Of a stretch of DNA of 29,701 nt, positions 11,050 through 29,701 are shown piece after piece (position 1 is the stretch's first letter; every line of letters starts with the position of its first letter). The translations under genes and the position numbers were made by a program. Source of the DNA: a virus; the UHGV virus genome UHGV-0181887; one strand, 5' to 3'. Under the pieces are notes generated by a model. It did no database searches, was not told where the DNA came from, and saw only the letters and a list, made by a program, of their open reading frames with translations.

Positions 11050-11113
11050 CGTTGAGACAATGACTTAGCAACTGACATCATGGAAAAACAGAAACCAACC
11101 GGCAGGAAAGAAC

Positions 11114-11953: not shown

Positions 11954-11976
11954 CCACGCAAGCGAGAATAAAACAC

Positions 11977-13062: not shown

Positions 13063-13070
13063 CTGAAATT

Positions 13071-13090
13071 GCGGGCGCTTAGGCGCCCGC
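13071..13090 (+). other. Perfect stem-loop immediately after the major capsid gene
   Basis: GCGGGCGC-TTAG-GCGCCCGC (8-bp stem), no T-tail; likely mRNA 3' stabiliser or partial terminator. Confidence 0.45.
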
Positions 13091-13105
13091 CACCAGGAGA
13101 CACAG

Positions 13106-13930
13106 ATGTTAACCCCAGCGCAAAAACACTATCAGCAAGTGATGGCTGATCGACGCGGAGAAAGCGCCGCACAACATAGCGTTGTACGTACCGCGCATGA
13201 GCAAATTTTGCATCGTCTACGCCTCGATCAGGCCTCTCTTAAGGCGGTGCAGTCTACTGAAACAAAAGCTGTGATGAAGCGTGACATGTTGCCGAATTAC
13301 CAGGGCTGGATTGATGGGACTCTGGAGGGTGACAGCGGGCGACAGGATGAAGTGATCACCACGATGATGCTATGGGCGATCGACTGCCAGGACTACCCGC
13401 AAGCGCTGAAGATTGGGCGCTATGTGGTGAAGCATGGCCTGTCTATGCGTGACGATTTCAAACGTACTGCGCCGGTGATGCTGGCTGAAGAAATCAGTAA
13501 CCAGGCGCTGAACGTGGCGACGACTGACGCTGAGGCGGATATGTCGGCTTATATCACCGTGCTGGATGACCTGGCGGAGATTGTCGCCGGGGCTGATATG
13601 CCGGATGAAGTGCAATCCAAACTCTGCAAGGCCCGCGCCTTCTCGCGCCGTGGAACGGCTGACAATGAGACAAAAGGCGAAGCGCTAAAACTGTTTCGCC
13701 GTGCGACGGAACTGAACCCCGCAGCGGGCGTGAAACGTGAAATGCAGTCTATTTCACGCGAATTGAAGAAGCTGGCGGCCCCGCAACCGGAAGCGACAGC
13801 ACAACCGGAGCCTGTGCCGGTTGTCGCAGAGAAGAAAACCCAACGTAAGCCGAGCGCGGATAAAGCTGCGAAACCGGCAGCAAAAAAACGCGCACCGCGT
13901 AAAACGGCGAAAGATAAAAAAGAATCTTAA
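13106..13930 (+). CDS. M: Terminase small / endonuclease subunit (P2 gpM-like)
   Basis: 274-aa ORF with basic Lys/Ala/Pro-rich C-terminal tail; position after N as in P2. Confidence 0.8.
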   Translation: MLTPAQKHYQQVMADRRGESAAQHSVVRTAHEQILHRLRLDQASLKAVQSTETKAVMKRDMLPNYQGWIDGTLEGDSGRQDEVITTMMLWAIDCQDYPQALKIGRYVVKHGLSMRDDFKRTAPVMLAEEISNQALNVATTDAEADMSAYITVLDDLAEIVAGADMPDEVQSKLCKARAFSRRGTADNETKGEALKLFRRATELNPAAGVKREMQSISRELKKLAAPQPEATAQPEPVPVVAEKKTQRKPSADKAAKPAAKKRAPRKTAKDKKES

Positions 13931-13947
13931 CGACTTCGGCCCCGACC

Positions 13948-14016
13948 GACAGGAGGCACACGCGGAGATCTGCACGTAACTGGTCTTTTCACCGCGTGTC
14001 CACCTCCTGACTTTTT
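13948..14016 (+). other. Long imperfect hairpin with T-tail between M and L (intra-operon attenuator candidate)
   Basis: Arms GACAGGAGGCACACGCGG (13948-13965) and CCGCGTGTCCACCTCCTG (13992-14009) followed by ACTTTTT, then AAGGAG RBS for L. Confidence 0.4.
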
Positions 14017-14027
14017 AAGGAGCGCTC

Positions 14028-14525
14028 ATGAGTAGCCTGATAGCGACAAAAACGCCGTTTCCGGCTGGCAGTGACGTAACTGATGTTGATGACGGTGATT
14101 CCACGGTAACGGCGGGAAGTTTCTGGCCTGTCATTAACCTGAAGGATTTACGCCTTGCCGCGCGTATTACCGGCGGCGTCACTACTTCGCGACTGATGCA
14201 CGTTACTACTGAAGCCGTGGGACACGTCATCGAGCAACTTGAAGAGTGGCAGATCAATCAGCAGGGGCTGGGCTATGAGGCGCTGAAGAACGTGCCCGCC
14301 GTGGAGATAAACGGCGAGAGCGTGAAGGTGTACCGCTACCGTCGTGCGGTTTATTCCATTGCCCGCGCCCTGGTGATTGAAGGTTACCGGGACGTTGATA
14401 CCACGCCAAAAGGCGACAAAGACGCCGCCGCGCTGGATTTGCAGCGCGAAGACCTCTGGCGTGATGCGCGCTGGGGTATTGCAGACATCCAGCGCAAGCC
14501 GCGCGTTTATGCGGAGTTGTGCTGA
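14028..14525 (+). CDS. L: Head completion / stabilisation protein (P2 gpL-like)
   Basis: 165-aa ORF; position and size as P2 L (169 aa). Confidence 0.8.
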   Translation: MSSLIATKTPFPAGSDVTDVDDGDSTVTAGSFWPVINLKDLRLAARITGGVTTSRLMHVTTEAVGHVIEQLEEWQINQQGLGYEALKNVPAVEINGESVKVYRYRRAVYSIARALVIEGYRDVDTTPKGDKDAAALDLQREDLWRDARWGIADIQRKPRVYAELC

Positions 14526-14725
14526 TGAAGGTCACCGCGTTACAGGGCGATACGCTGGATCAGCTATGCCACCGGCACTACGGAAAAACCAAAGGCGTTA
14601 CTGAAGAAGTATTGACCGCCAATCCGGGGCTGAGTGGGCAGGTTTTTTTAAACGCAGGGCAGGTGGTTGAAATGCCGGACATTGATACCCAGCCCGCACA
14701 AGAGATGGTGCAGTTATGGAGCTAA
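14525..14725 (+). CDS. X: Tail protein X (P2 gpX-like)
   Basis: 66 aa from ATG 14525 overlapping the L stop (ATGA); size and position match P2 X. Confidence 0.75.
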   Translation: MKVTALQGDTLDQLCHRHYGKTKGVTEEVLTANPGLSGQVFLNAGQVVEMPDIDTQPAQEMVQLWS

Positions 14726-15012
14726 ATTCGTTTCACCGTTTATGGGACTGGGTTACCTGGATTTCTTCATCCATCAGCGTTGGTGTTGGTGTGATGACGT
14801 GGAATGAAAAGTTGGGGGTTGCCGGTGTTGTTTTGGGTGCCCTGTCAGGCTGGCGCGCCTGGGTACATCGTGCGCGGGTGGAGAAGGCACAGGCCCGCCG
14901 AAACTCACTGATTGAGCAAATTCTTGATCAGGCTGAGCGCCGGGGGCTTACCGATTTTGAGCGGGTGAAGCTGGCGCAATTCCAGGCGGGTGACGATGAA
15001 GACGGTTATTAA
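14716..15012 (+). CDS. Y: Holin (P2 gpY position; two predicted TM segments)
   Basis: 98 aa with hydrophobic segments VTWISSSISVGVGVM and LGVAGVVLGALSGW and a charged C-terminus; immediately upstream of the endolysin. Confidence 0.75.
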   Translation: MELNSFHRLWDWVTWISSSISVGVGVMTWNEKLGVAGVVLGALSGWRAWVHRARVEKAQARRNSLIEQILDQAERRGLTDFERVKLAQFQAGDDEDGY

Positions 15013-15538
15013 GCGTTGCTCCATCGCCGTGATTGTTGCCCTGGGCTTATCAATGTCGCCCGATGCGCTGAGAACGTCGCTGGAAGCACAACAAAAAATA
15101 GCCTCCTGGGAAGACTGCCGTAACACGCCTTATTACTGTACCGCCGGAGTGTTGACCGTGGGGATCGGCTCCACCGGTGGTGTGGAAAAACGCGAGTATA
15201 GCAACGCTGAAGTAGCGCGCCGGTGGGTTAGTGATATGCAGCATTCTGAACGCTGCGTAAACCAGAACTTCAACGGCGAAGCGATGCCGCAAAAGGTGTT
15301 CGAAAGCATGGTTGATGGCGGGCTGAATGTGGGTTGTACGGGCCTGATGTGGTTTACCGATAAACAGGGCCGCAAACAGCGTACAACCATCTGGAAAAAT
15401 GCCCAGGCTCACAACTGGGGCGGCGTTTGTGATCGCTTAACTGACTTTGTAAACAGTGCCGGTAAGCGCTCGCAAGGGCTGGTCAATCGGCGCACTGACT
15501 TTCAGGCGTGGTGCCGGATGGATGCGGGGGCGCAATGA
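14990..15538 (+). CDS. K: Endolysin, T4-lysozyme-type, with N-terminal signal-anchor-like segment (P2 gpK position)
   Basis: Motif WEDCRNTPYYCTAGVLTVGIGST matching the E-x8-(D/C)-x5-T catalytic pattern; N-terminal CSIAVIVALGLSMSP hydrophobic stretch. Confidence 0.8.
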   Translation: MTMKTVIKRCSIAVIVALGLSMSPDALRTSLEAQQKIASWEDCRNTPYYCTAGVLTVGIGSTGGVEKREYSNAEVARRWVSDMQHSERCVNQNFNGEAMPQKVFESMVDGGLNVGCTGLMWFTDKQGRKQRTTIWKNAQAHNWGGVCDRLTDFVNSAGKRSQGLVNRRTDFQAWCRMDAGAQ

Positions 15539-15909
15539 AAGCAGTTTTATGGGGTTTGGTGTTAGCCGCTCTTACTTACGGGGCCGGGTATTACCGGGGA
15601 TATACAAGCGGCGTGGCGGATGACAACGAACAGAAGTTACAGCGCATGTTTGATGAAAGTGAAGCCGTGATAGGTGAAATGCGTGATCTGTCTGCTGATG
15701 CGCGGGCGGTGCTGGCTGAGGCCAAAAAAGCGGAACAAACACGCAACCTGGCGGGTGAAGAACGCCGTAAAAACATAACTGAGGGGATGCGTGATGATTC
15801 GTGTGCCGGTGCTCTTGCTCCTGTTGCTGTCAGTGATGGGTTGCTCAGGAAAAATCAGAGTTCAAACGCGGTTGATTCACGAGCCGATACCGGAAAGCCT
15901 GACCGATGA
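15535..15909 (+). CDS. lysB: Inner-membrane spanin (Rz-like, P2 LysB position)
   Basis: ATG 15535 overlaps the K stop; N-terminal TM (AVLWGLVLAALTYGAGYY) then charged coiled-coil-like region. Confidence 0.7.
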   Translation: MKAVLWGLVLAALTYGAGYYRGYTSGVADDNEQKLQRMFDESEAVIGEMRDLSADARAVLAEAKKAEQTRNLAGEERRKNITEGMRDDSCAGALAPVAVSDGLLRKNQSSNAVDSRADTGKPDR

Positions 15910-16081
15910 AACGCCCACGCCGGAACTGAAAACGCCGGTGACGTGGGGCGGCATTGCGATTTGGGCCGATCAGTTGCATGACGCGCTTGATACCTGCAAT
16001 GCGGATAAGAGTGATATCCGGGCGCTAAATCTGTTGCGCCTGGCACGCCAGAGGGGAGGGGAACCACATGCTGAAAATTAA
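15794..16081 (+). CDS. lysC: Outer-membrane lipoprotein spanin (Rz1-like, P2 LysC position), overlapping the 3' end of lysB in another frame
   Basis: ATG 15794 with GAGGGGA RBS; signal peptide with lipobox LSVMGC; Pro-rich mature region. Confidence 0.7.
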   Translation: MIRVPVLLLLLLSVMGCSGKIRVQTRLIHEPIPESLTDETPTPELKTPVTWGGIAIWADQLHDALDTCNADKSDIRALNLLRLARQRGGEPHAEN

Positions 16082-16520
16082 CTCATTACGTAGCGCGCTC
16101 ACCAGGGCTAATCCGTGGTGTCGTGCCAACCCTGAAGCCTTCAGCGTTTTTATTGAATCCGGGCATGTTGAGACGACCGGCGAAACGGCTGACTTTGTTT
16201 ACGCCTATACGCTGTGTCTCTTTGTGATGAATTTTGCCGGTGATCTGGATGATTTCACGTTGCCGCTGATGGCCTGGCTGTGGCAGGAACAGCCGCAACT
16301 GTTGCTGAACCCGGAGAAGAACAAAGAAATTAAGTTCACAACGGCAATCAATAATGACGATACCGCCGATCTGTTTTTTGAACTGCCTATTAGTGAACGC
16401 GTGATTGTATCGCGTGATGAAGCCGGGAAGCTGACCGGAAAGCATAAGCCGGAACCCCGCCCGCGCATGATGCCAGAGTGGGGCGCGATGTTGAGCGAAC
16501 CAGGGAGTGACAACCCATGA
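16068..16520 (+). CDS. R: Tail completion protein (P2 gpR-like)
   Basis: 150-aa ORF; position and size match P2 R (155 aa). Confidence 0.75.
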   Translation: MLKINSLRSALTRANPWCRANPEAFSVFIESGHVETTGETADFVYAYTLCLFVMNFAGDLDDFTLPLMAWLWQEQPQLLLNPEKNKEIKFTTAINNDDTADLFFELPISERVIVSRDEAGKLTGKHKPEPRPRMMPEWGAMLSEPGSDNP

Positions 16521-17155
16521 ATGCCGGTGATGTTCACGCGCTGGATCAGTATTTCGCAGACATCCTGGCGGGGGCGTCATCCAGTGGGCGGGCCAGAACG
16601 GCGCGCGCCGTGGGTAAGGTTTTACGAATTAGCCAGCAACAGCGCATACGCGCACAGCGCAACCCGGACGGAAGCCAGTACCCGTCACGCCGCCGTAAAA
16701 CGCTGCGCACCCAGCAGGGGATCGCCTTTATCTGGGAAGGGCAGTTGCGCCGGTTGAAAAACTGGCACAGCGGGCGCGGTAAGTACGGGCGGACTATTAC
16801 CGGATTTGATGAAGACCGTAATGAGATCCGCACGTTCTACCGTGCCGATATTGAACGCTATACGGAAATTAATACCCGCGCGGGCCAGCGCTCAAAAGTG
16901 GTCAAGGCACCAATGTTTGTAAAGCTGAGAACCGCCCGCTTTATGAAAGTGAAGTCATCAAGTGAGGGGGCTGAGGTGGGTTACAGCGGTATGGCGGCCC
17001 GTATCGCCCGCATTCATCAGTACGGGTTGCGTGAACAGGTGGGCCCGGGGGCGTTTGCGAAGTATGCGCCGCGTGTCCTGTTGGGGATCTCTAAGGCCGA
17101 TGAAGCGCTGATCCGTAGCGCGGTGATTAACAGCCTGGGGAGTGCCGGGGCATGA
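16517..17155 (+). CDS. S: Tail completion / virion morphogenesis protein (P2 gpS-like)
   Basis: 212-aa ORF coupled to R (ATGA overlap); position as P2 S. Confidence 0.7.
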   Translation: MNAGDVHALDQYFADILAGASSSGRARTARAVGKVLRISQQQRIRAQRNPDGSQYPSRRRKTLRTQQGIAFIWEGQLRRLKNWHSGRGKYGRTITGFDEDRNEIRTFYRADIERYTEINTRAGQRSKVVKAPMFVKLRTARFMKVKSSSEGAEVGYSGMAARIARIHQYGLREQVGPGAFAKYAPRVLLGISKADEALIRSAVINSLGSAGA

Positions 17156-17733
17156 GTGCCGAACTGTTGCGCCTCCTGTCTAACGTGCTCCGCGTAGGCG
17201 TGGTTTTTGCCATATCGGAAGACGGCAAGAGTGTGCGGGTGCAGAGCGATGATTTACAGACAACCTGGCTTCGCTGGACGACAACGCGCGCCGGTGCTTT
17301 TAAATTCTGGTGCCCACCATCGCTGGGCGAGCAGGTTTTGCTGGGATGTATGGGCGGCAATCCTGAAACAGCCGTTGTGCTGGGTAGCCTCTACAGCAAC
17401 GACAACGACGCCCCCGCCAGCAGTCTGATGCAGATGATAATCACCGCACCTGATGGGGCTGAATTTAGCTATGACGCGAAGGCGGGCGCACTGAGTGCCG
17501 GCGGCATGAAAACCGCCACAATCCAGGCTGCAACGAAAGTCACGCTTGATGTGCCGGAGGTGGAATGTACTAACCACCTGAAAGCGAAAACATTTGATTT
17601 CACTGAAGGCGGCAAGATGACCGGAGATGTAGATCACAGCGGCGGCGCACTGAAGTCAAACGGCGTCCAGGTTGATGATCATGACCACGGCAAAGTGCAG
17701 CGCGGCGATGCATGGACGGAGGGTATTAAATAG
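17152..17733 (+). CDS. V: Baseplate spike / assembly protein (P2 gpV-like)
   Basis: 193-aa ORF, first of the V-W-J-I-H-G baseplate/fibre run. Confidence 0.8.
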   Translation: MSAELLRLLSNVLRVGVVFAISEDGKSVRVQSDDLQTTWLRWTTTRAGAFKFWCPPSLGEQVLLGCMGGNPETAVVLGSLYSNDNDAPASSLMQMIITAPDGAEFSYDAKAGALSAGGMKTATIQAATKVTLDVPEVECTNHLKAKTFDFTEGGKMTGDVDHSGGALKSNGVQVDDHDHGKVQRGDAWTEGIK

Positions 17734-18101
17734 TGACGGCGAAATATACGGGAATGAACCAGGGCAGCACTGGGATGGTTTCAGATAGCGATCACCTGTG
17801 GCAATCCGTGAAAGATGTCTTGCTGACGCCGCTGGGGTCACGCGTAATGCGCCGGTCATACGGCAGCTTGTTACCTGATTTGCTGGACGCGCCGAAAAAC
17901 GAGACAACACGCCTTCAGCTAATGAGCGCCACGGTGATTGCGCTGACGCAATGGGAGCCGCGGATCGCATTGAACCAGGTCGATATTACGTATTCAGACG
18001 CGGGGGCCGTGACGGTTGAGTTAAGCGGATTGATTACCACAACAATGCAGCCGGTAAGCGGCGCGGTAAAAGTGAAGGAGTCAGGCAATGGCAACGGTTG
18101 A
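17733..18101 (+). CDS. W: Baseplate protein (P2 gpW-like, gp25-like fold family)
   Basis: 122-aa ORF after V; size as P2 W (115 aa). Confidence 0.8.
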   Translation: MTAKYTGMNQGSTGMVSDSDHLWQSVKDVLLTPLGSRVMRRSYGSLLPDLLDAPKNETTRLQLMSATVIALTQWEPRIALNQVDITYSDAGAVTVELSGLITTTMQPVSGAVKVKESGNGNG

Positions 18102-18981
18102 TTTATCTGAACTTCCACCGCCGGAGATTATCGCGACGCTCGATTATGAAACCATTCTGAGTGAAGTGATAGCGATGATCATTGCCGCATACCCGGAAGA
18201 AAAACAACTGGCAATAGCGGCGGCAATGGCGCTGGAGTCAGAGCCCCTGACCGTGATCGCTCAGGTGTTTTCCTACCGGGAATTGATGTTGCGACAAACG
18301 GTCAATGACGGTGCTGGCGCTTGCATGTTGAGTCACGCCAACGGCGGCAATCTGGATAACCTGGCGGCAAATAACAACACAGAGCGACTGACGATTGTTG
18401 AGGCGACAGATACAACGGATGCGGTAATGGAAAGCGACGCCGCGCTGCGCTTACGTGCGCAATCGGCATTCGATGGGCTGAGTGTTGCCGGGCCTACCGG
18501 CGCTTACGAATATTTTGCTAAAAGCGCATCGGGGAAAGTTGCTGATGTTAAGGCATCAAGTCCGGCACCGGCTGAAGTTGTTGTTTCGGTGCTCTCTGCT
18601 GAGGGTGACGGAACGGCTTCAGACGAGCTGATCGCAACGGTCAACGCAAAGTTATCAGACGAGAGTATTCGCCCCGTTGGTGACCGGCTGACAGTCCAGA
18701 GCGCTGAGATTATCAGTTATGACATCAATGCCACGCTGTATCTCTACCCAGGCCCAGAGTCTGAGCCCATTGTGAACGCTGCTGAGGCGTCGTTGCAGAA
18801 GTGGCTCAAAAGCCAGTGGCGGATCGGGCTTGATGTTGCCAGGTCTGCAATTTTGGCGGCGTTACACGTGCAGGGCGTGCAGCGTGTGGAACTGGATTTA
18901 CCTGAACGGCTGATTATCAGCGATACACAGGCGGCGCGGTGCGCTTCGGTCACCATCACGAGAGGCGGAACCGATGAATAA
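18088..18981 (+). CDS. J: Baseplate wedge protein (P2 gpJ-like)
   Basis: 297-aa ORF; size as P2 J (302 aa); synteny. Confidence 0.8.
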   Translation: MATVDLSELPPPEIIATLDYETILSEVIAMIIAAYPEEKQLAIAAAMALESEPLTVIAQVFSYRELMLRQTVNDGAGACMLSHANGGNLDNLAANNNTERLTIVEATDTTDAVMESDAALRLRAQSAFDGLSVAGPTGAYEYFAKSASGKVADVKASSPAPAEVVVSVLSAEGDGTASDELIATVNAKLSDESIRPVGDRLTVQSAEIISYDINATLYLYPGPESEPIVNAAEASLQKWLKSQWRIGLDVARSAILAALHVQGVQRVELDLPERLIISDTQAARCASVTITRGGTDE

Positions 18982-19588
18982 CAGTCTGTTGCCACCTTCA
19001 GCCAGTGATTTTATGCGCGGTGCCGAGGCCGCAACCTGGCGCGTGAGTGATTTGCCCGTAGACCTGAAAACGCTGTGGAACCCTGATGAATGCCCGGTTG
19101 CTTTACTGCCTTATCTGGCCTGGGCGTTATCGGTTGATCGCTGGGATAAAGGCTGGTCAGAACAGACAAAGCGACAGGTGATTAAATCCGCCTGGCTGGT
19201 ACACCGGCAAAAGGGAACTATTGCGGGGCTGCGCCGTGTCGTTGAGCCGTTCGGCTTCCTGATAAAGGTCGTTGAATGGTGGCAGAACGGAGGCGAGCGG
19301 GGAACATTTCAACTTGAAATTGGTGTTTCTGACTCAGGGATTACAGAAGAAACCTATCTCGAGCTTGAGCGCCTGATCGCTGATGCAAAACCATGCTCAC
19401 GCCACCTGACCGGCCTTGCAATCAGTATGCAGGCGAAGGGAGAGGTATACGCCCACGCCGGGTGTTATGGCGGTGACGTGATGACTATTTACCCCTATAT
19501 GCCTGAAGCCGTAGAAGTCAGTGGCGGGTATTTTCCCGGGGGCGCAATTCATATTATTGATACGTTAGAGGTAACAAATGGCGGCTAA
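18974..19588 (+). CDS. I: Baseplate protein (P2 gpI-like)
   Basis: 204-aa ORF overlapping J stop and H start; synteny. Confidence 0.8.
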   Translation: MNNSLLPPSASDFMRGAEAATWRVSDLPVDLKTLWNPDECPVALLPYLAWALSVDRWDKGWSEQTKRQVIKSAWLVHRQKGTIAGLRRVVEPFGFLIKVVEWWQNGGERGTFQLEIGVSDSGITEETYLELERLIADAKPCSRHLTGLAISMQAKGEVYAHAGCYGGDVMTIYPYMPEAVEVSGGYFPGGAIHIIDTLEVTNGG

Positions 19589-20864
19589 ATTCTTTGCCCT
19601 GCTGACTGCTCAGGGGGCGGCAAAATTATCAAATATGGCTGCGCTGGGTGAGAAGTTAGAAATCACCTCGCTCGCAGTTGGCGACGGCGGCGGCAAATCA
19701 CCAACGCCAAACCAGGCACAGACAGCGCTGGTTAACGAGGTGCGCCGCGCCCAGCTTAACTCGCTGTCAGTGGACGATAAAAACGACAGCCAGATTATTG
19801 CGGAGCAGATTATTCCTGAATCCGTTGGCGGGTGGTGGATTCGTGAAATAGGACTCTTTGACGCTGATGGTATCTTGATTGCTGTGGCTAACTGCCCGGA
19901 GACGTACAAGGCCACAACAGAGGAAGGATCAGGCCGTACGCAGGTTATCAGGATGGTGCTCACGGTATCGAGCACTGATGCCGTTACCCTGAAAGTTGAT
20001 CCATCGGTTGTGCTGGCAACCCGGCAGTATGTTGATAGTGCTGTAATTGAGGTGAAAACCTATACAGACAACGCGATAAAAAAGCACGTTGACACCGCTA
20101 ATCCGCATAGCCAGTACCTGTTGATTGAAAATGCTCTTAAAGAATTGATTAAGGCCGGGTTGGTTGGAGAGGCTATCAAAAACCTTGGTTTAGATAAAAC
20201 AGTTCAATTAGCAGCCGATGCGTTACCTGCTTCTGGTGGGAGGGTTACTGGTGATGTGATTGTTGAAGGTATTATCTCAGCAGTCGGACACGAAATGATC
20301 GTGGAAAAAGAGAGTGGTTTTTCAGGTATTCATATCAAAAATAAAAGCAGTGAAAATGGAAGTGCATGTGGTTTGGATTTTTCATTTGGTGGAGCAATTA
20401 TGTCGTCGATTATTTGCGGCATAATGGGAAACGGCGCGAACTATATTGATTTTGCTTTATCTCCATCAGGGGAGATCTCCGATCGTCGAGTTAATGCATT
20501 CACAATGAATGCTGATGTGAAAAAATTGATTTTTCAGAATGATTGGGGCATTCAGGGGTATGTGAAAAATACAGACTTTACTCAGGTAATGGCTGATGCC
20601 GGTTGGGTGCGTTTTCCAAATGGAATAATTTTACAGTGGTGTTGGGGGAATACTGATGGTGGCGGCTGGGCTTCAGCCCCTTTTCCTATTGGTTGGCCTG
20701 TTCGCTGTTTTGGTATCTTGCCATGCAATGTGGCTGGTAATGCAGCAGCGTCGGCGATTGCTGGAGTTAAAAGATTAAGCGATCGAGATATGCAGGTTTC
20801 TTTATTAGAAAGAACAGGCGCCGCTGCGTCAAAACCATTCTTTTGCTTTGGTGTGGGGTGTTAA
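19578..20864 (+). CDS. H: Tail fibre protein (P2 gpH-like N-terminus, divergent AT-rich C-terminal receptor-binding region)
   Basis: 428 aa; conserved N-terminal anchor region; the 3' third (about 20200-20864) is visibly AT-rich; shorter than P2 H (about 669 aa, from memory). Confidence 0.8.
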   Translation: MAAKFFALLTAQGAAKLSNMAALGEKLEITSLAVGDGGGKSPTPNQAQTALVNEVRRAQLNSLSVDDKNDSQIIAEQIIPESVGGWWIREIGLFDADGILIAVANCPETYKATTEEGSGRTQVIRMVLTVSSTDAVTLKVDPSVVLATRQYVDSAVIEVKTYTDNAIKKHVDTANPHSQYLLIENALKELIKAGLVGEAIKNLGLDKTVQLAADALPASGGRVTGDVIVEGIISAVGHEMIVEKESGFSGIHIKNKSSENGSACGLDFSFGGAIMSSIICGIMGNGANYIDFALSPSGEISDRRVNAFTMNADVKKLIFQNDWGIQGYVKNTDFTQVMADAGWVRFPNGIILQWCWGNTDGGGWASAPFPIGWPVRCFGILPCNVAGNAAASAIAGVKRLSDRDMQVSLLERTGAAASKPFFCFGVGC

Positions 20865-20866
20865 TT

Positions 20867-21298
20867 ATGTTTAGTAATATATATTTCAGTGCTAAGAATA
20901 ACTCATTCTTTTTTGAGTCAATGAAATCAGACTATGAAAAAACGAATACTTGGCCTGATGACATTGTTGAAGTTGAATCTGATATTTATCAGAAATACAC
21001 AGGAAGGCCGCCAGAAGGAAAAGGTAGAGGAGGCGACGCTTCCGGTCAGCCTGTATGGGTTGATGTATCAGAGCCTACAGCCGATCAGTTAATTGCGTTA
21101 GCTATACAGCAAAAAAAAGACTTGGCTGAAAATGCAGGTACAGAAATTGCGTGGCGGCAGGATGCGATTGAAGCTGGTATTTCAACCGATGATGAAGTTA
21201 TTCAGCTTGCGAAGTGGAAGAAATATCGGGTGCTATTGATGCGTATTGACACATCAAAAGCCCCCGACATTATCTGGCCTGATATCCCTGAGGATTAA
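20867..21298 (+). CDS. G: Tail fibre assembly chaperone (Tfa, P2 gpG position)
   Basis: 143 aa from ATG 20867, directly after H; AT-rich; the conserved Tfa-like C-terminal half is a family assignment by position and size. Confidence 0.7.
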   Translation: MFSNIYFSAKNNSFFFESMKSDYEKTNTWPDDIVEVESDIYQKYTGRPPEGKGRGGDASGQPVWVDVSEPTADQLIALAIQQKKDLAENAGTEIAWRQDAIEAGISTDDEVIQLAKWKKYRVLLMRIDTSKAPDIIWPDIPED

Positions 21299-22263
21299 TT
21301 TGATAGGCTTTTTAGTCTAAAGTTTGCAATTAAATTATCTTTAATGATATTAGCTATTGAATAGCTAATGCAAATAGTGCATGCGACTGTTGTTATGACT
21401 AACCAATCAGATGCAAATTGTTTTGCAAGCTGAATGGCATAGATTTGTATAAGATATATGTTTTTTGAGTGCTCGCGAATTGTGAAGGTGTTTTTTGTTT
21501 TCAGGGTGATATCTAGCACTTTTAAAAAAACAAAAACACCAGCGAACGGAAGTGAAAAAAGCATATCAAAGGTATATGTGCCATATGAATAATTTACGGA
21601 TGCCTCAATGATGACCAAAATAATGGAACCAATGAGTAAATATGTATTGTTATTTCTTATATTATTTTTATTTATAAGGTATCCAAGCATAAATAATGGA
21701 AAACCCATGAAAAGACCGTTTCTGGAAAAGAAAACTGTAGCGAGAGACCATATATCACGATTTATGTCAATGGCATAATTTGCGCGATATTGAAGTAACG
21801 TGCCGCACGTATAAAGTATGCAGCATATGATTATTGATGTGCGATCTTTTAGCTTAGCTAAAAGTAATGTTAATAATGCCGATACTATCAGGGCAGGGAA
21901 AAACCATAAGTGCCAAAATCCAAATACTGCATTTAGAGATAAATATGTAAGGTCTGTCGCTAAAGGTTTACCCGCCCTAATAAAACCAACTAACCCTAGT
22001 ATTATTGGCAAGTAAAGAAGCGTCCATAGAGCATAGGTTTTTATATTGTGAGAAAACCATTTTTTAATTTTATTTTTTTGCATTACAGAAAAATAAAAAT
22101 ACCCACTAGTAATGAAAAAGAATGGCACTGCAATCCTTAGAAGTCCCTGGCAAGTAACATATCCTATATAATTACTGTTGCCGCCTAAAATGTCTGTGTG
22201 TATAAAAATAATACAAAACGCAAAGAAAAGTTTTGCGTAATCAATTGAGGAAAGGTTTTTCAT
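21295..22263 (-). CDS. Acyltransferase family 3 integral membrane protein (OafA/Oac-like O-acetyltransferase candidate); lysogenic-conversion moron
   Basis: 322-aa polytopic membrane protein with about 10 hydrophobic segments; strongly AT-rich by eye; antisense to the late operon at the P2 Z/fun variable position. Confidence 0.7.
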   Translation of the reverse strand: MKNLSSIDYAKLFFAFCIIFIHTDILGGNSNYIGYVTCQGLLRIAVPFFFITSGYFYFSVMQKNKIKKWFSHNIKTYALWTLLYLPIILGLVGFIRAGKPLATDLTYLSLNAVFGFWHLWFFPALIVSALLTLLLAKLKDRTSIIICCILYTCGTLLQYRANYAIDINRDIWSLATVFFSRNGLFMGFPLFMLGYLINKNNIRNNNTYLLIGSIILVIIEASVNYSYGTYTFDMLFSLPFAGVFVFLKVLDITLKTKNTFTIREHSKNIYLIQIYAIQLAKQFASDWLVITTVACTICISYSIANIIKDNLIANFRLKSLSN

Positions 22264-22388: not shown

Positions 22389-22424
22389 CCCCTCGGTGAA
22401 AACCAATCCGAGGGGGATATTTTT
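22389..22424 (+). terminator. Intrinsic terminator (plus-strand orientation) at the right end of accessory island 2
   Basis: CCCCTCGG (22389-22396), 11-nt loop, CCGAGGGG (22408-22415), then GATATTTTT; U-tail only on the plus strand, so likely ends the V-G late transcript. Confidence 0.5.
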
Positions 22425-22430: not shown

Positions 22431-22919
22431 TTAAAACAGACTGGATGCGGCAGCGCTGATATTATTCAGCGCTGAGTTGGCTGTGTTTTGTAGGTTGCTG
22501 AGTAAATCACTCACTGATGAAGACTGGAGGCTTTCGCGCAGGTCTTCATCCTGCCTTTGAAACGTGATCGTAAATTCTATTTTCTTCGGCTCCCCATACT
22601 GGTCAAATTCAGTATCGGTTGTCTGAAGCTGCGTTATCGAATACATGCCATATATCCGCCCGGTGCCGCTGATAAGGGGCCAGGGGCGTCCGGTATATGC
22701 CTGTGTATCGAGCACAGTTAGACTCACCTTGCCGCCGGTCACTGAAGGGTACAAAACGCCGGATAGGGTGATTTGATCGTCACCTGCACCAATGTATTGC
22801 CACTTTGCCGATCGGTTTATGCGCTCGTTCTTCACATGCCGCCAGGTCTTTGACTGCTGCAATTGTTGGTGTGGAACGGTTTTTAACTCAAAGACGAACA
22901 TTCCGTAAACCATCATCAT
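22431..22919 (-). CDS. U: Tail protein U (P2 gpU-like)
   Basis: 162 aa; N-terminus MMMVYGMFVFELKTVPHQ resembles P2 U (recalled from memory); follows the tape measure gene. Confidence 0.8.
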   Translation of the reverse strand: MMMVYGMFVFELKTVPHQQLQQSKTWRHVKNERINRSAKWQYIGAGDDQITLSGVLYPSVTGGKVSLTVLDTQAYTGRPWPLISGTGRIYGMYSITQLQTTDTEFDQYGEPKKIEFTITFQRQDEDLRESLQSSSVSDLLSNLQNTANSALNNISAAASSLF

Positions 22920-22931
22920 TTTTTTGCTCTC

Positions 22932-25900
22932 CTAATCTTTGTCTCTGAAACTGCTGCCAGAGCGGGAACGCTTGTTAAGTTCCGCCACAACTGCTTCACC
23001 CACCATCCGTGCAATGTCGCGGGCGTCGTTGCTGAGATTGCCGTGCATATGAATGTGAATATGCATTTCATCAGGCGCGGTGTTTTGCGTCGGTCTGCTG
23101 GCTTGTTTACTGGATTGCCCGCCAATAGCCTGTACTTCAGCCGCCGGTTTAATCGGTGCTGATGCCGCTGTGATAGCGGGGCGTGCGCTAAGTTGGGCCA
23201 GGTTAGCGCCAGGGGTTGATTGTGCTTCCTGCCATGCGCCGTGGACGGCTAAAGCGCGGGGCAGATTTTTAAACACGATATCGCCAGGGCCGATCCGCTT
23301 TTTGGTTTCATCCAGCATCCCGCCGGTGTTGTCGGCAATTTTCTGTAGGCGTCGTTGCGTTCCTGTATCAGCGGCAATCACTGGTGACGGTGGGGCAATA
23401 GGTGGCGCGGTTACCGCTTTCACATCACCGGTGAGCGCGCTAACTTTATCCTGCAGCATAGCCAGTCCTGCCGGTGTTAACTCCTGCTGTATCTTTTGTG
23501 CCTTTGCTCTGGCTGCTTCAATGCCTGAAGGGATTAATCCCAACTTTTCCAGTATCCAGCCAATGCCTTTCATTAACCCCGTTAAGGGCAACATTAACCC
23601 CTGAAGCACCGCACCAAATACGGTGCCGAATCCATACCCGGCAATTTTGCAATCATCCAGCGTCTTTTGTGTTGTTTGCATTGGGCTAATCAGGTTTGTA
23701 AACCACTGCCACACTTGGGCGAGCGCATTTGAAATAACGCCAAATATCGGGGCTAGAGAGGAAAACGCAGTGATTAAAGGGGCGAGGGCATTAACCACAC
23801 CAGTAAAGAATCCCGCAAAGAAGGCTTTGATCGGCTCCCAGTATTTCCAGACCAGTAGACCTACCGCGATAAGCGCCGCGCCAATCAGTCCAATCGGACT
23901 CAGGATAAACGACAGCACACCGCCGAGAGCGGAAATTGCGGTTGTGGCAATGCTCATGATAGTGGGGATGCCGGACAATCTGAGGAGAAGGCCACCAATG
24001 CTCTTAGTTAGCCCACCAATCGCCGCCCCTGGCGACATAAACGCCCCCATCATAATTCCGCGTAACGGCGCAAGAATGCTGGTAAGTTTTCCAGTACTTC
24101 CCGCTATTCCGCCCAAAATTGGGCCCCAGGCCCGCGCGCTGCCAAGCGGCCCGGTAATGGCACCACCAAGACGACTGAATAGAGATAGCGCACCGCCAGC
24201 ACTGCCGGAACTTGTCAGCAGGGTAAAGCCGAGTTGCAGTTTTGCCAGCGGGCCAAGAAGTAAGCCAATAGCCAGAGACGTTGCACCAATCGCGGCGGTG
24301 AGGGCCAGCGCACTGCCGCCAACTACCAGAAGGGTTTTTGATAGCTGCGGATTCTTATTCGCCCATTCCGTCATCACGCCGATCGTACCGGTTAGTGCCT
24401 GGGTGAGTTTTCGCAGTGCGCCGTCCGCCAGTTCTTCAATCTGGATGCGGAACGCTTCCAAGGCGCTATCGAGTTCTTTTAGATCCCCGCCCAGGTTGTC
24501 CGCCATTTTTTTTGCGACGGTGGCGGATTCACCGGCGGCGCCCTGAAGTTCTTTTGTGAGCTTTTGTAGCTCCCCCGAACCTGCCGCCTGTACCAGCGTT
24601 TGAAGGCCCACAAAAGCCTCTTCACCGGCGATGTCCTTGAAGAACGATACCTGATCGACTTCGCCGTATTTTTTCGTGGCCTTGAAAAGGTCTGACAGCA
24701 CGGTTTCCATCGGGCGCATTTTCCCGTTGGCGTCGGCAACTGATACGCCCAACTCTGCCAGGGCTTTAGCCGCGGCTTTTGGCGGTGAGGCTAGGCGGGA
24801 AAGGCTGGAACGCATAGCTGTACCGGCGTCACTGCCGCGCAGACCGTTATTGGCAAGCATACCCGCCATAGCGGATGCCTCTTCCAGGCTAATTCCCAGA
24901 TTAGCCGCCACTGGCCCGGCATATTTCATTGTGTCGCCCAGGGCGCGCAGGTCGGTATTGGTACGGGTAAAAGCGGCGGTTAGCGTATCGCCAACCCTGT
25001 CCATCTGATCTGATGACAGCTTGAATTGCGTCAGGATGTTTGAACCGATATCAGCGGATTCGCCCAGATCCATGCCACCGGCTAACGCCATATTCAGAAC
25101 GCCAGGCAATGCGGCCTGAATTGACTGTGGTGTAAAGCCCGCCATTGCTAAGAAGGCTTGCCCGCTGGCGGCGTCTCGCGTGGTAAATGCGGTTTCAGCA
25201 CCCAGTTTTTTAGCCTGGGCGCGCATAGCGGCAAACTGTTCATCGCCCTTATCCAGGCGAGTCAGTGCACCTACGCGGGACATTTCCTCATCAAAACCAA
25301 CGGCTGGGGCCAGGAAGCGTCCGGCAGCGTAGCCCGCCCCCGCGCTTGCGCCAACAGCCATTGCGCCGCCGGTGCGTAGTTTGCCAGCCGTGGCGCTCAG
25401 ACGGTCATAGCGGGCGCGCGCGTTGGTGACTGCGGCAAGTTGTCGCCGTTCTCTCTCAAGCGTCTGGTTATATTGCTCAGTGCGCCTGATGGCGCTTTGA
25501 ATTGTGCGATCGCCGCCCGCCAGTGAGACACCGTGCGCGCGCAGCGCCTGGGACGCTTGCTGGAGTTTTGCTGTCTCCTGTGACCGGCTGGCATTCAGGC
25601 GATCAAGTTTCGCCGCCAGTGCCGTCATGCGCTCGCGCTGTGCGTCGGTTAGTACGGTGCCGTCCTTCTGGGCTTTGTTCAGGCCGTCAAAGGCGCGCTG
25701 TGTTGTAGTAAGTTGCTGGGCTGTCTTTTTAACGCGCTCATTCAGGCGGTTGAATGCCTGGGATTGCGTTTCCAGATCCTTGATAGAAGATTGTGTTTTT
25801 TTGAGGGATTCAGATAAGCCGCCCACTGAGTTGCGGGCGGCATTTACCGGGCGGGTTAACTTATCAATCGCACTGAAGGCGACACGAATATTAAGGTCTT

Positions 25901-25940
25901 TCATCTTCACTGTTTCCGCTTCGGATAGCCGCCCGCTCAC
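22932..25940 (-). CDS. T: Tail tape measure protein (P2 gpT-like)
   Basis: 1002-aa Ala/Gly-rich protein with coiled-coil N-terminus and hydrophobic glycine-zipper-like central segments; follows E/E'. Confidence 0.9.
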   Translation of the reverse strand: MSGRLSEAETVKMKDLNIRVAFSAIDKLTRPVNAARNSVGGLSESLKKTQSSIKDLETQSQAFNRLNERVKKTAQQLTTTQRAFDGLNKAQKDGTVLTDAQRERMTALAAKLDRLNASRSQETAKLQQASQALRAHGVSLAGGDRTIQSAIRRTEQYNQTLERERRQLAAVTNARARYDRLSATAGKLRTGGAMAVGASAGAGYAAGRFLAPAVGFDEEMSRVGALTRLDKGDEQFAAMRAQAKKLGAETAFTTRDAASGQAFLAMAGFTPQSIQAALPGVLNMALAGGMDLGESADIGSNILTQFKLSSDQMDRVGDTLTAAFTRTNTDLRALGDTMKYAGPVAANLGISLEEASAMAGMLANNGLRGSDAGTAMRSSLSRLASPPKAAAKALAELGVSVADANGKMRPMETVLSDLFKATKKYGEVDQVSFFKDIAGEEAFVGLQTLVQAAGSGELQKLTKELQGAAGESATVAKKMADNLGGDLKELDSALEAFRIQIEELADGALRKLTQALTGTIGVMTEWANKNPQLSKTLLVVGGSALALTAAIGATSLAIGLLLGPLAKLQLGFTLLTSSGSAGGALSLFSRLGGAITGPLGSARAWGPILGGIAGSTGKLTSILAPLRGIMMGAFMSPGAAIGGLTKSIGGLLLRLSGIPTIMSIATTAISALGGVLSFILSPIGLIGAALIAVGLLVWKYWEPIKAFFAGFFTGVVNALAPLITAFSSLAPIFGVISNALAQVWQWFTNLISPMQTTQKTLDDCKIAGYGFGTVFGAVLQGLMLPLTGLMKGIGWILEKLGLIPSGIEAARAKAQKIQQELTPAGLAMLQDKVSALTGDVKAVTAPPIAPPSPVIAADTGTQRRLQKIADNTGGMLDETKKRIGPGDIVFKNLPRALAVHGAWQEAQSTPGANLAQLSARPAITAASAPIKPAAEVQAIGGQSSKQASRPTQNTAPDEMHIHIHMHGNLSNDARDIARMVGEAVVAELNKRSRSGSSFRDKD

Positions 25941-26363
25941 GCCAGGCTATCACCTCACTCAGGGACATAGTGAAAACCTCTGAGGGCGGCCAGTTGAAAA
26001 TAACTGCTATATCAGCAACCAGATCATCGATCAGGTCAAAGTGGGGCGCGTTTACTCGCTCTCCGTCTCCGTCTCGTTCTTCGTGCCAGGCTCCTTCGGC
26101 GCTAAAAAAGGCGTTAGTACCTCGCAAAGTTCAACAAAGTCAGATGTTTCCATTTCACTGATTTCTTTGAGCTTCAGGCGTGGGGAAGTGCAGCGGGTTA
26201 ACAGGGTGCTGATGCTGTCCACGTCCATATTCATAACGTTCACCAGGCGAAGGCCGCGCAGGGAGCCAGCCTGTTTCACTTCGTCAGTGATCGTGATGGT
26301 TTTGATTTCGTTGCCGTCGCGGGAGATCGGGCGGGTCAGTGTTACGGTGTTTTCTTGAGTCAT
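25891..26363 (-). CDS. E+E': Tail assembly chaperone E+E' (product of -1 programmed frameshift)
   Basis: E frame 26363-26052 and overlapping -1 frame ending at 25891; translation across the slip site changes from ...LTPFLAPKEPG to ...LTPFFSAEGAWHEE, matching the track ORF 25891..26127. Confidence 0.7.
26052..26363 (-). CDS. E: Tail assembly chaperone E (P2 gpE-like)
   Basis: 103-aa ORF between the tail tube and tape measure genes; contains the slippery site near its 3' end. Confidence 0.8.
   Translation of the reverse strand: MTQENTVTLTRPISRDGNEIKTITITDEVKQAGSLRGLRLVNVMNMDVDSISTLLTRCTSPRLKLKEISEMETSDFVELCEVLTPFLAPKEPGTKNETETESE
26103..26109 (-). promoter_or_regulatory. Slippery heptamer T_TTT_TTA for -1 ribosomal frameshift (E to E+E')
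   Basis: Minus-strand zero-frame codons CCT TTT TTA GCG; slipping -1 gives TTT TTT AGC GCC, continuing into the E' ORF. Confidence 0.65.
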
Positions 26364-26417
26364 CGTTTTAATCTCCGGGCGGCATCACCACGATGCCGCG
26401 CCTGTAGTGGTTGTTGG

Positions 26418-26930
26418 TTACCCCATGCCCAGCGCGGACATCACGCGGGAAGGGTAAATATTTTCGCCGTTGCGTTTGTACACGAAGTTCAGCAGGTCAA
26501 TTTCCCAGATGGGCTTATCGTCAATTGACAGCTTGTAGTACGTGTTTTTAATGGCGTAGGTGACGGATGTATCTTCGCCCTGTTTGCTTTCGCCGCCGTC
26601 GATTTCGGTGAATTTGCCGCGCATTTCCACGTCAACGATCTGGCTTTCGCCGGATGTGTAATATTCCCCGGTGAATCGGATAAGCGTACCGTCCAGATCG
26701 CCGCCGTATTCCAGTAGCAAAGCCTGAACCAGGCCGCCTACAACCATCGTGGCATCAAGCGCGCCGCTATCCAGTCCGAGATCGACAGCAACAGAGCCAA
26801 TCATCCCGCCGCCCTGATAGTCGTCAGTTTTGCGGGTCAGTTTTGGCAGCGTGACAGATGTCACTTTGCCGATATTGTTCACGCTGTTCACAAAGCAGGT
26901 GAACAGCCGTAGTTTTGGTGGAATCGCCAT
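26418..26930 (-). CDS. FII: Tail tube protein (P2 gpFII-like)
   Basis: 170 aa; N-terminus and internal KLTRK...GGGM...VDLGLD segments resemble P2 FII (recalled from memory). Confidence 0.85.
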   Translation of the reverse strand: MAIPPKLRLFTCFVNSVNNIGKVTSVTLPKLTRKTDDYQGGGMIGSVAVDLGLDSGALDATMVVGGLVQALLLEYGGDLDGTLIRFTGEYYTSGESQIVDVEMRGKFTEIDGGESKQGEDTSVTYAIKNTYYKLSIDDKPIWEIDLLNFVYKRNGENIYPSRVMSALGMG

Positions 26931-28121
26931 TTAGTTACTCCCCAGAGACGAAAACGCGCCTTCAAAATATTCATCGGTGAACGTCTGGATCAGCGTCAAA
27001 TCTTCCATCGGTGGCACTGGCGTGTACTTGTAGCGGATCGCCACTTTGCCCTGAATCAGGTTTGCGGTTCCGTTGTCCACGATGTCAAACCAGGCTTCCG
27101 CGCCAAGCAACTTGCCAGCTGTGACCAGTGCACTGAGTTTCTTGTTAATCGCGCTCACCACGTCTTTCACGTTGGTCGGGGTGAGTGGCCCGTCAATGGT
27201 TTCAAATTGCGCCTCTGCGATGGTGTCCGCCAGGATTTGCGCCGTGCGGGTGTACACCTCAAACACAAATTCATTGGTGTCTGTGGTGCGGTTACCCCAG
27301 AAACGGAAGCCATTACGCTTGATGATGGTGGTGATTTCAGCGTTGTTCAGCGTCTGTGCGTCACTGTCTTCAGCCTGAAGCGCCCAGAAAACATCCTTCG
27401 AAATGCCAAGCACATTGCTGACGGCAATGTTAGATAGCGAGCGGTGCCAGCCGTACTGGTTATCAATAAACGCGCGCAGCCCTACCGCATAGGCCGGGGC
27501 CGGGAATACTTCATTTTCCCCGGACACCTGGTTATATGCGATGTAGTCAGGCCAGATCAGCGTGAGTTCGCGTGATGCGAAGGTTTTACGATACGCGAGG
27601 GCTTCCGCCAGCGTCTTGCAGCCGTTACAGCTTGCATAAACATAGGCGCGAAGCTGTTTGGCGATCACACAAAGCTGTGCCGTCACTTCTTCGGTGTCGT
27701 ATTCAGGAACCGCCAGGATGCGCGGTCGATACTGTGTCTTCTGTTCGGCAGTCAGAAGCGCATACATGCCGGTGTAGTTACCTTCAGCATCAGAGCCACC
27801 GATAATTAGTTGCGCTTGCGTTTTCGCTTCTGCGTCGCCTTCCAGCGGCTTGGCTGCGGCGACACGAACAACAATGACTTTCGCGCTTGCCTGGTCTGAA
27901 ATGGCTTTCAGCGTTTTGTACAGCGTCCCTGTTTTCCCCGCCTTGCCCAGCATCGACTGAGGCCGCGTGATAAGCGTTGGGGTGTTGAGTGGAAATGCGT
28001 CTTCGTCCGCGTCATCAGCGATGACAATTACGCCAATGACGCTGGAGTCAATGTCGTTAATTACCTTCGTGATGTCGGTTTCTTCTTTGGTGCGAGCACC
28101 GTGAAAACGTGTCTCAGACAT
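26931..28121 (-). CDS. FI: Contractile tail sheath protein (P2 gpFI-like)
   Basis: 396 aa from ATG 28121 (GGTGA RBS; track ORF begins 12 nt upstream at 28133); segments RPRILAVPEYDTEEV, IRRNGFRFWGNRT and YKYTPVPPMEDLTL resemble P2 FI. Confidence 0.9.
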   Translation of the reverse strand: MSETRFHGARTKEETDITKVINDIDSSVIGVIVIADDADEDAFPLNTPTLITRPQSMLGKAGKTGTLYKTLKAISDQASAKVIVVRVAAAKPLEGDAEAKTQAQLIIGGSDAEGNYTGMYALLTAEQKTQYRPRILAVPEYDTEEVTAQLCVIAKQLRAYVYASCNGCKTLAEALAYRKTFASRELTLIWPDYIAYNQVSGENEVFPAPAYAVGLRAFIDNQYGWHRSLSNIAVSNVLGISKDVFWALQAEDSDAQTLNNAEITTIIKRNGFRFWGNRTTDTNEFVFEVYTRTAQILADTIAEAQFETIDGPLTPTNVKDVVSAINKKLSALVTAGKLLGAEAWFDIVDNGTANLIQGKVAIRYKYTPVPPMEDLTLIQTFTDEYFEGAFSSLGSN

Positions 28122-28194
28122 GTTTGTCACCATTACGTTTTGTTGAGTTCGCCACCATGATTGCTGATTGACGTAACGGCTTCACGCCTTTCTG

Positions 28195-28223
28195 GTTGTG
28201 CTATCTCTCTGACAACTAAAACG
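28195..28223. promoter_or_regulatory. Late-promoter activator site (Ogr box TGT-N12-ACA) in the divergent FI/D region
   Basis: TGT 28197-28199, 12-nt spacer, ACA 28212-28214; 24 of 29 positions identical to the P/O element at 11021-11049. Confidence 0.6.
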
Positions 28224-28274
28224 AATTCTCCCACGCGCGCTCGCGTGGAATTATTCAGCAAAACGGGAGGGTGT

Positions 28275-29408
28275 ATGAGTGTTTCAGTGATCAGCAGTAT
28301 GATTTCGGGCGCGGCTGGCGGTGTCGATGACATCCTGACGGAGGCGTTAAAAATACCGGCATTCAGCGTCCGGCAGGGCGGAAAGGTGTTAACAGAATTA
28401 TCAGATCGCGTGATATCCATCAGCCTGACGGACAACAGGGGATTTGACGCCGATCAGCTGACATTAGAGCTGGATGATACTGATGGAAGCGTTGCCCTTC
28501 CGCCGCGCGGTGCTGAGTTGTCTTTCTGGCTGGGGTGGATGGGTGAAGCGCTGGTTTATAAGGGCGTGTACACGGTTGATGAAGTCGCGCATGACGGGCC
28601 GCCAGACCGTATCACGGTGACCGCCAGGAGTGCAGATTTCAGAGAAGAGTTTAACGTGAAGCGTGAAGTCTCCTGGCATGATGTGACTGTGGAGCGGGTT
28701 GTGTCCGCTATCGCAAAACGGTATGACCTGACGCCGCAAATCAGCGATCTGTTAATGGATGTGGAAATTGACCACGCCGATCAGACTCAGGAAAGCGATA
28801 TGTCATTTCTGACCAGAATGGCGGAAATGTTAGGGGCCATCGCCACGGTAAAAAATGGCAGTCTGTTATTTATCGTGCCGGGTGGTGGTTTCACAGCATC
28901 AGGGAAGGCTATTCCGTCGATTGCCATCACGCGCAGCAGTGGCGACCGGCACCGCTTCCGCGTTGCTGATCGTGACGCTTATACCGGCGTCCGCGCGTAC
29001 TGGCTTGATCTGAATTACGGGAAAAAGAAAAAGGTCAGTGTCCGCCGCCGAGCCACAACGAAAAAAAAGGATAAGAGCAGCAGCAGGGAAGGTGACTACA
29101 TTGAAGGCGCTGAAGGTAACGTTTTTATTATGCGTAAAACCTTCCAGAACGAAGAGGCCGCCAGGCGCGCAGCGGCGGCGAAGTGGCAGCAGTTACAGCG
29201 CGGCGCGGCGGAGTTTTCGATCACCCTGGCGCGCGGGCGCGCGGAGTTGTACCCGGAAATGCATTCGACGGTAACCGGCTTTAAGGCAGATATTGACGCC
29301 CAGGACTGGATAATCAGTAAGGTACAGCATGATGTTGATAGTAATGGATTCACAACACAGCTTAACTTTGAAGCAAAAATATCTGACTGGATCGCAGAAA
29401 CTGAATAG
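28275..29408 (+). CDS. D: Tail protein D / late control gene D (P2 gpD-like)
   Basis: 377 aa from ATG 28275 (GGGAGG RBS); the track ORF from TTG 28161 would include the promoter element; position next to ogr as in P2. Confidence 0.8.
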   Translation: MSVSVISSMISGAAGGVDDILTEALKIPAFSVRQGGKVLTELSDRVISISLTDNRGFDADQLTLELDDTDGSVALPPRGAELSFWLGWMGEALVYKGVYTVDEVAHDGPPDRITVTARSADFREEFNVKREVSWHDVTVERVVSAIAKRYDLTPQISDLLMDVEIDHADQTQESDMSFLTRMAEMLGAIATVKNGSLLFIVPGGGFTASGKAIPSIAITRSSGDRHRFRVADRDAYTGVRAYWLDLNYGKKKKVSVRRRATTKKKDKSSSREGDYIEGAEGNVFIMRKTFQNEEAARRAAAAKWQQLQRGAAEFSITLARGRAELYPEMHSTVTGFKADIDAQDWIISKVQHDVDSNGFTTQLNFEAKISDWIAETE

Positions 29409-29424
29409 AATGGCGATGAGTTCA

Positions 29425-29439
29425 ACTCCCCAGGGGAGT
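29425..29439. promoter_or_regulatory. 15-bp perfect palindrome ACTCCCCAGGGGAGT overlapping the ogr ribosome-binding region
   Basis: Read directly; centred on 29432, ends 8 nt before the ogr ATG; function (operator versus SD-sequestering hairpin) unknown. Confidence 0.35.
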
Positions 29440-29446
29440 CACCATT

Positions 29447-29701
29447 ATGTTCAGATGCCCACATTGCGGCGCTACGGCCCGCACACGTACCAGTAAGCCA
29501 CTAAACGAAGAGCAGACCATCTACCGGCAGTATCACCAGTGCCAGAACATGGAATGCGGATTGTCATTCACCACGCTTAACAGCGTTGAAAAGATAGTCA
29601 CTAAACGTGAGCGCCGCGAAGAGTTATCCCCTGATTTTATCCCTGCCGGTGTTTTTCCTGCCTCGCATTACGGACGCGATCAGCTAAATTTAGCGATATG
29701 A
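29447..29701 (+). CDS. ogr: Late-gene transcription activator, zinc-finger (Ogr/Delta family)
   Basis: 84 aa; Cys4 motif CPHCG...CQNMEC; terminal gene of the prophage, stop at the window end. Confidence 0.85.
   Translation: MFRCPHCGATARTRTSKPLNEEQTIYRQYHQCQNMECGLSFTTLNSVEKIVTKRERREELSPDFIPAGVFPASHYGRDQLNLAI

Follow-up and report, generated by a model that had tools for sequence, protein, structure and literature searches.

The closest described counterpart of the locus studied here is the divergent pair of late promoters pP and pO of phage P2. In the P2 record (AF063097) one annotated feature covers the pair, an 'activator binding site; pO, pP promoters' at 3057-3087, and mapped transcript starts are given at 3016 on the minus strand and 3127 on the plus strand. 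Reading the P2 sequence itself places a partial dyad, TGT-N12-CCA, with its centre at 3071.5; each start lies 55.5 bp from that centre, and on either side a -10 hexamer (TAGCCT, GAAACT) begins at a distance of 43.5 bp. Given the shared annotation and the mapped starts, use of a single site in two directions is an established model for the family. Activation by P2 Ogr goes through the C-terminal domain of the alpha subunit of RNA polymerase. In Smp131, PP' and PO' have been assigned to one dyad, and the consensus and the Ogr dependence have been restated (PMC3931495).

A second P2 late promoter, pF, drives the FI FII E E' T U D operon, which begins with the sheath gene FI, from an activator site ~55 bp upstream. 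FI FII E T U D ogr are collinear in P2 (AF063097) and in Fels-2, and in both phages pF is one-directional and D comes last in the operon. The prophage described here differs in that D lies on the other strand from FI and needs a promoter of its own. A P2-type late promoter pair reading two ways from a single site, pP/pO, is already known; what is new is that FI/D probably forms another such pair, of matching architecture, in a large clade that has already been sequenced. We found no description of a divergent FI/D late promoter in the literature searched, and the GenBank records carry no annotation of one.

Results

An inverted tail block sets FI and D back to back

The window, by which we mean the whole stretch of 29,701 nucleotides that was analysed (UHGV virus genome UHGV-0181887), is a P2-like (Peduoviridae) prophage extending from int (190-1170, minus strand) to ogr (Table 1). 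It probably originated in Kluyvera; the closest genome found was a contig of Kluyvera sp. STS39-E in which D is 99% identical. A near-identity search of the phage collection gave no match to the window, and a distant search of the same collection returned relatives at 65-70% identity. The product of the ogr homologue matched the Ogr_Delta profile with 58.7 bits against a cutoff of 26.3.

Table 1. Features of the window. Promoter elements, transcript starts and the activator site are predictions; offsets are counted from the centre of the FI/D dyad.
Feature	Position	Strand	Remarks
Q and P, late genes		-	
O through G	11114-21298	+	
Acyltransferase cargo gene	21298-22263	-	AT-rich
U-T-E-FII-FI	22431-28121	-	
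FI, tail sheath gene	26931-28121	-	first of the inverted FI-FII-E-T-U block; Pfam Phage_sheath_1; start at 28121 kept in relatives
D, tail or baseplate hub gene	28275-29408	+	Pfam Phage_GPD
ogr homologue, late-gene activator	29447-29701	+	Pfam Ogr_Delta, PF04606, E = 5e-16
Sister dyad between P and O	11021-11042		
Predicted Ogr-type activator binding dyad, GTTGT-N12-ACAAC	28195-28216		centre between 28205 and 28206 (28205.5)
18-nt block TCTCTGACAACTAAAACG	28206-28223	+	right arm plus flank; identical to P/O copy 11032-11049
Predicted FI-FII-E-T-U late transcript start	28150	-	by analogy with P2 pP start 3016
Putative FI promoter, -10 AATCAT	28157-28162	-	starts at 43.5 bp
Putative FI promoter, residual -35 GTGAAG	28180-28185	-	17-bp spacer; placed from geometry
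Putative D promoter, residual -35 TTCTCC	28226-28231	+	17-bp spacer; placed from geometry
GC-rich palindrome CCACGCG cgct CGCGTGG	28229-28250		in spacer of putative D promoter
Putative D promoter, extended -10 TGg AATTAT	28246-28254	+	hexamer 28249-28254, at 43.5 bp
Predicted D-ogr late transcript start	28261	+	at 55.5 bp, 7 nt past the hexamer; by analogy with P2 pO start 3127
Sigma-70-like promoter, CTGACT-17-TAGAAT	29383-29411	+	overlaps D at its end; the ogr ATG is 36 nt further on

Because this part of the genome is collinear in P2 and Fels-2, the FI-U block of the window is inverted, and FI on the minus strand and D-ogr on the plus strand stand back to back across a gap of 153 bp. The first-pass annotation had placed the element considered below at an inversion junction, and the comparison with the two phages bears this out. 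Fels-2 had been expected to share the inverted layout; its collinearity with P2 ruled it out as a fellow carrier. Inverted repeats were looked for at the borders of the FI-U block and none were found, which argues that the block is not an invertible switch; a site-specific invertible segment was rejected on this ground and on the ground that the layout is fixed over ~100 loci.

The ORF finder placed the start of FI at ATG 28133 (MVTNMSET...), whereas relatives conserve the downstream in-frame ATG at 28121 (MSETRF...), which is most likely the true start. The sequence CACCAT upstream of ATG 28121 is kept in most relatives and is apparently the Shine-Dalgarno sequence of FI (GGTGA on the coding strand). 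For D, the initiation codon is ATG 28275, with GGGAGGG as the Shine-Dalgarno sequence.

Where P2 has its Z/fun lysogenic-conversion locus, the window carries between G and U a cargo gene with 32-35% GC as compared with ~50% in its flanks. Its product is a membrane acyltransferase (Acyl_transf_3, Pfam E = 1e-19), and the gene is probably a moron that modifies surface polysaccharide. Just past the end of U, at 22389-22416 on the plus strand, a GC-rich hairpin, CCCCTCGG...CCGAGGGG, is followed by ATATTTTT; a simple terminator scan missed it because its loop is 11 nt long. The hairpin could halt plus-strand read-through from G and the cargo gene into the antisense strand of the tail block, or could end the FI-U operon.

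A perfect dyad is shared by the two divergent late-gene gaps

The FI/D gap contains one dyad only. It is perfect over 5+5 bp, GTTGT-N12-ACAAC, and the minimal consensus TGT-N12-ACA is matched exactly at 28197-28214. The extended dyad occurs twice in the window, as compared with 0.02 copies expected (0/100 shuffles). The other copy lies between P and O, and the 18-mer TCTCTGACAACTAAAACG, which likewise occurs twice, was expected 0.04 times even with three mismatches allowed. The two dyads occupy the only two gaps of the window that separate divergent late genes, P/O and FI/D. The bare TGT-N12-ACA motif was not enriched (three found, 6.5 expected), its third match, at 4501, falling within a coding region. 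Scans allowing one mismatch, with either TGT-N12-ACA or TST-N12-ACAAC, gave counts at the chance level and cannot reveal further sites.

The interval 28195-28223 had been described beforehand as the second occurrence of the late-promoter or activator element. Both the dyad and the 18-mer recur at P/O, in agreement with that description, and the coordinates are correct: the dyad accounts for 28195-28216, and the right-hand limit, 28223, is the end of the 18-nt block. The element had also been called the sole recognisable activator site of the gap. This holds as well, and a search of the FI/D gap for a sigma-70 consensus promoter found none.

Putative promoter elements are placed symmetrically about the dyad

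The site is set upstream of late morphogenetic operons, with the sheath gene FI on one side and the hub gene D on the other. On each side a putative -10 hexamer begins 43.5 bp from the dyad centre, preceded by a residual -35 element that has just 3/6 matches (Table 1). Starts were predicted by the spacing seen in P2, 7 nt past the hexamer. The predicted FI start, ~28150, is 29 nt before ATG 28121. The predicted D start, ~28261, is 14 nt ahead of the D ATG and just before the Shine-Dalgarno sequence. At the P/O copy, -10-like hexamers are found at 43.5 bp on the P side and 44.5 bp on the O side.

This arrangement closely parallels that of P2 pP/pO. In both, one dyad, partial in P2, lies midway between divergent late operons, the -10 hexamers, putative in the window, begin 43.5 bp from its centre, the -35 elements are weak, and the genome has its own gene for an Ogr-family activator. 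The starts are 111 bp apart in both cases, a distance that is mapped in P2 and predicted in the window (28150 and 28261). The genes served differ, being P-Q and O-S in P2 and, by prediction, FI-U and D-ogr in the window, and the window dyad has arms GTTGT/ACAAC where P2 has TGT-N12-CCA. The predicted window pair also resembles P2 pF, which drives the same sheath gene from an activator site at a similar distance: the pF site, TGTGCTGTCGATTAGCCA, is similar to TGTGCTATCTCTCTGACA in the window.

The rightward promoters differ in a further respect from those of P2. An extended -10 (TGn) is present on both rightward late promoters of the window (O, 11073-11081; D, 28246-28254) and is conserved across the clade; it is absent from the leftward late promoters (P and FI) and from the P2 late promoters. 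The -35/-10 spacers of the P (10991-11004) and D (28230-28248) promoters in the clade contain a near-palindromic GC block (CCCGCGCGCGTGGG or CCCACGCGCGCTCGCGTGG), an observation that also covers the FI/D gap of phiT5282H, and the pP promoter of P2 has a similar block, CGCGGGGCGCG. The GC block might keep basal activity low, or might be a site for another factor.

The layout and the spacing are conserved among diverged relatives

With D as the query, 123 loci were retrieved. Among those in which both FI and D could be located, FI lay beside D on the opposite strand in the 107 loci in which D is at least 56% identical; in more distant loci, from Erwinia, Ewingella, Raoultella, Serratia and Tolumonas (D ~50% identical), U lay upstream of D, as in P2. 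The divergent layout is thus common to ~100 related loci, and to reference phages of five ICTV genera that carry the same inverted FI-U block: Novemvirus (phiT5282H), Xuanwuvirus (P88), Reginaelenavirus (3LV2017), Senquatrovirus (SEN5) and Reipivirus (ST16-OXA48phi5.4). These five phages share 65-70% DNA identity with the window. Their FI/D gaps are ~150 bp long, and the position of the dyad and the offsets of the hexamers are as in the window; several have a TCT rather than a TGT left arm. The records of all five are without promoter annotation in the FI/D gap. Small hypothetical proteins are annotated over the dyad and promoter elements in P88 (33155-33286) and SEN5 (20707-20859); such small hypothetical ORFs, called over the gap in several reference phages, probably represent promoter DNA rather than genes.

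A dyad-like element was present at the same place in 85/85 unique FI/D gaps, mostly as T[G/C]T-N12-A[C/G]A. From these gaps, 16 representatives sharing <88% identity were aligned without gaps, anchored on the dyad centre. A hexamer with A at its second and T at its sixth position (A2/T6) started at 43.5 bp in 16/16 representatives on the FI side and in 15/16 on the D side, as compared with at most 8/16 at any other offset; the representatives are related, so these counts are not independent trials. Within the dyad arms G28195, T28199, A28212 and A28214 were invariant. The same was true of A2, A5 and T6 of the FI-side hexamer (28161, 28158 and 28157) and, in the ungapped register, of A2 and T6 of the D-side hexamer (A28250 and T28254). 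The TG of the D-side extended -10 was found in 14-15/16 representatives. In the -35 elements, T28226 was invariant and T28227 present in 14/16 on the D side, and on the FI side A28184 and C28183 of the plus strand (TG on the minus strand) were invariant. The DNA between these conserved points varies, and alignment gaps are confined to the two leaders.

Conservation of equal spacing on both sides fits a promoter pair that shares one site and is read in two directions; an unrelated D promoter would have no need for such spacing. An extended -10 (TGn) can, however, fire without an activator, so that Ogr may not be the only constraint behind the conserved spacing.

The arms of the dyad co-vary between the two sites of a genome

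Arm type (TGT or TCT) and flanks were concordant at P/O and FI/D within a genome and differed between clades. This was seen in the window, in the five reference genomes and in 32/32 IMG/VR contigs that hold both regions. The window clade has sites of the form GTTGTG...GACAACTAAAAC and the phiT5282H clade sites of the form GGTCTGGCC...CGACAACAAAA; the arms of P88 (TTCT) and SEN5 (TTGTC) are also clade-specific. The P/O and FI/D sites behave in their sequence as targets of one cognate factor. No simple link was found among the relatives between Ogr sequence identity and arm type.

Most relatives have TCT rather than TGT as the left arm, so their site is less symmetric than that of the window, and ACAAC is nearly invariant. 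In the FI/D gap of four Providencia loci (L021, L022, L029 and L043) the element reads TCT-N12-AGA, both arms being changed symmetrically with respect to TGT-N12-ACA. This may reflect an activator of altered specificity.

One site probably serves two divergent late promoters

Taking the geometry and its conservation together, we conclude that one Ogr-type site probably serves two divergent activator-dependent late promoters, FI-U and D-ogr, and we give this reading a probability of roughly three in four. The sequence comparisons favour use of the site in two directions over use in one, because P2 has an annotated shared site and because the same mirror geometry is conserved on both sides in diverged relatives.

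The alternative that fares best is that the site is one-directional, being the ancestral F promoter for FI-U, and that D-ogr has an activator-independent promoter with an extended -10, TGgAATTAT at 28246-28254, which is nearby by coincidence, with or without the sigma-70-like promoter ahead of ogr. Promoters with an extended -10 can work without a -35 element or an activator, the TGn on the D side is conserved, and a separate promoter-like site for ogr does exist at 29383-29411. The asymmetry of the site in most relatives, with the FI-facing arm degenerate (TCT) and ACAAC nearly invariant, points in the same direction. However, in 15/16 lineages the D hexamer is found at the exact mirror position, no insertion or deletion separating it from the dyad, a spacing for which an independent D promoter would have no need. 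The TGn is shared in the clade by the O promoter of the P/O pair, the P2 counterpart of which is annotated under a shared activator site. D is moreover a late tail gene, which in P2 lies within the late F operon, and an unregulated D-ogr promoter would turn on late genes in the lysogen. We consider one-directional use of the site unlikely.

The palindrome at 28229-28250 was picked out as resembling a minus-strand terminator, and could be functional either as a terminator or insulator on that strand, or as the operator of another regulator that gates the D promoter. Its predicted fold is stable (-18.7 kcal/mol, z = -3.8), relatives retain its GC-rich core, and the spacer of the P promoter has a comparable block. 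On the other hand, the core that is maintained in relatives, CGCGCGCG, is self-complementary by nature, and the outer pairs of the stem are not maintained, being lost without compensation in close relatives (e.g. L048 and L050). The tail, GAATTCGTTT, is a poor U-run, and there is no minus-strand gene upstream whose transcript needs ending. The palindrome is also upstream of the predicted D start and would thus be absent from the D RNA. An intrinsic terminator was rejected for its weak tail, its unmaintained outer pairs and the want of an upstream minus-strand gene, and a functional palindrome of any of these kinds appears improbable. Finally, a chance match to a loose consensus with no regulatory role, which the unenriched TGT-N12-ACA motif taken alone would allow, can be dismissed, since the extended dyad and the identity of the 18-mer far exceed chance expectation and the element keeps its position over ~100 loci and co-varies with the P/O site.

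Discussion

In the reading that we prefer, with one Ogr-type site serving both promoters, the prophage's own zinc-finger Ogr protein would bind the dyad and activate RNA polymerase on either side from about -55, through a contact with the alpha C-terminal domain, as is known for P2. The leftward start at ~28150 would be that of the old F promoter and would drive FI-FII-E-T-U. An ancestral inversion of the FI-U block would have brought the F promoter, together with its dyad, up against D. D would then have gained a -10 at the mirror position and so kept late, Ogr-dependent expression; the dyad being symmetric, a mirror -10 would have been all that D required.

The rightward start at ~28261 would drive D late and read on into ogr. 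The gap between D and ogr is 38 bp, and a search of 29100-29701 for a plus-strand terminator found none, which is the basis for expecting read-through. Ogr would in this way promote its own expression, a positive feedback. P2 has an annotated -35/-10 in the D-ogr interval, and by analogy the sigma-70-like sequence at 29383-29411 is a candidate activator-independent ogr promoter comparable to that of P2. This weak promoter could supply the first Ogr and so prime the feedback.

The late regulon of the clade may have one further peculiarity. In the window the homologues of S (16517-17155) and V (from 17152) overlap, with no orf30 and no gap between S and V, and the S-V region is laid out in the same way in phiT5282H, P88 and 3LV2017. 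The scan of the window revealed no recognisable dyad ahead of V. Since S and V overlap, no V promoter is recognisable, and together with the lack of a dyad this suggests that the clade may be without a V promoter. O through G may then form one operon of ~10 kb, and the late genes as a whole may depend on just two activator sites.

A shared site would account for how ogr and D, an essential tail gene, stayed under late control after the inversion had cut them from the F operon. Within 111 bp it would also offer activator-dependent expression in two directions, a compact module of potential use as a genetic part. These genera may have a simpler late regulon than P2, with two sites as compared with three. 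More tentatively, and at somewhat less than even odds, the whole late programme of this large clade would run from only two symmetric, bidirectional Ogr sites, one for P-Q and O...G and the other for U...FI and D-ogr. If this is true, the FI/D pair was born when the inversion set the dyad of the old F promoter beside D, which captured it from the other side. It would then show, in a clean natural case, how mirror use of an existing site can create a new activator-dependent promoter, and would place ogr under direct positive feedback.
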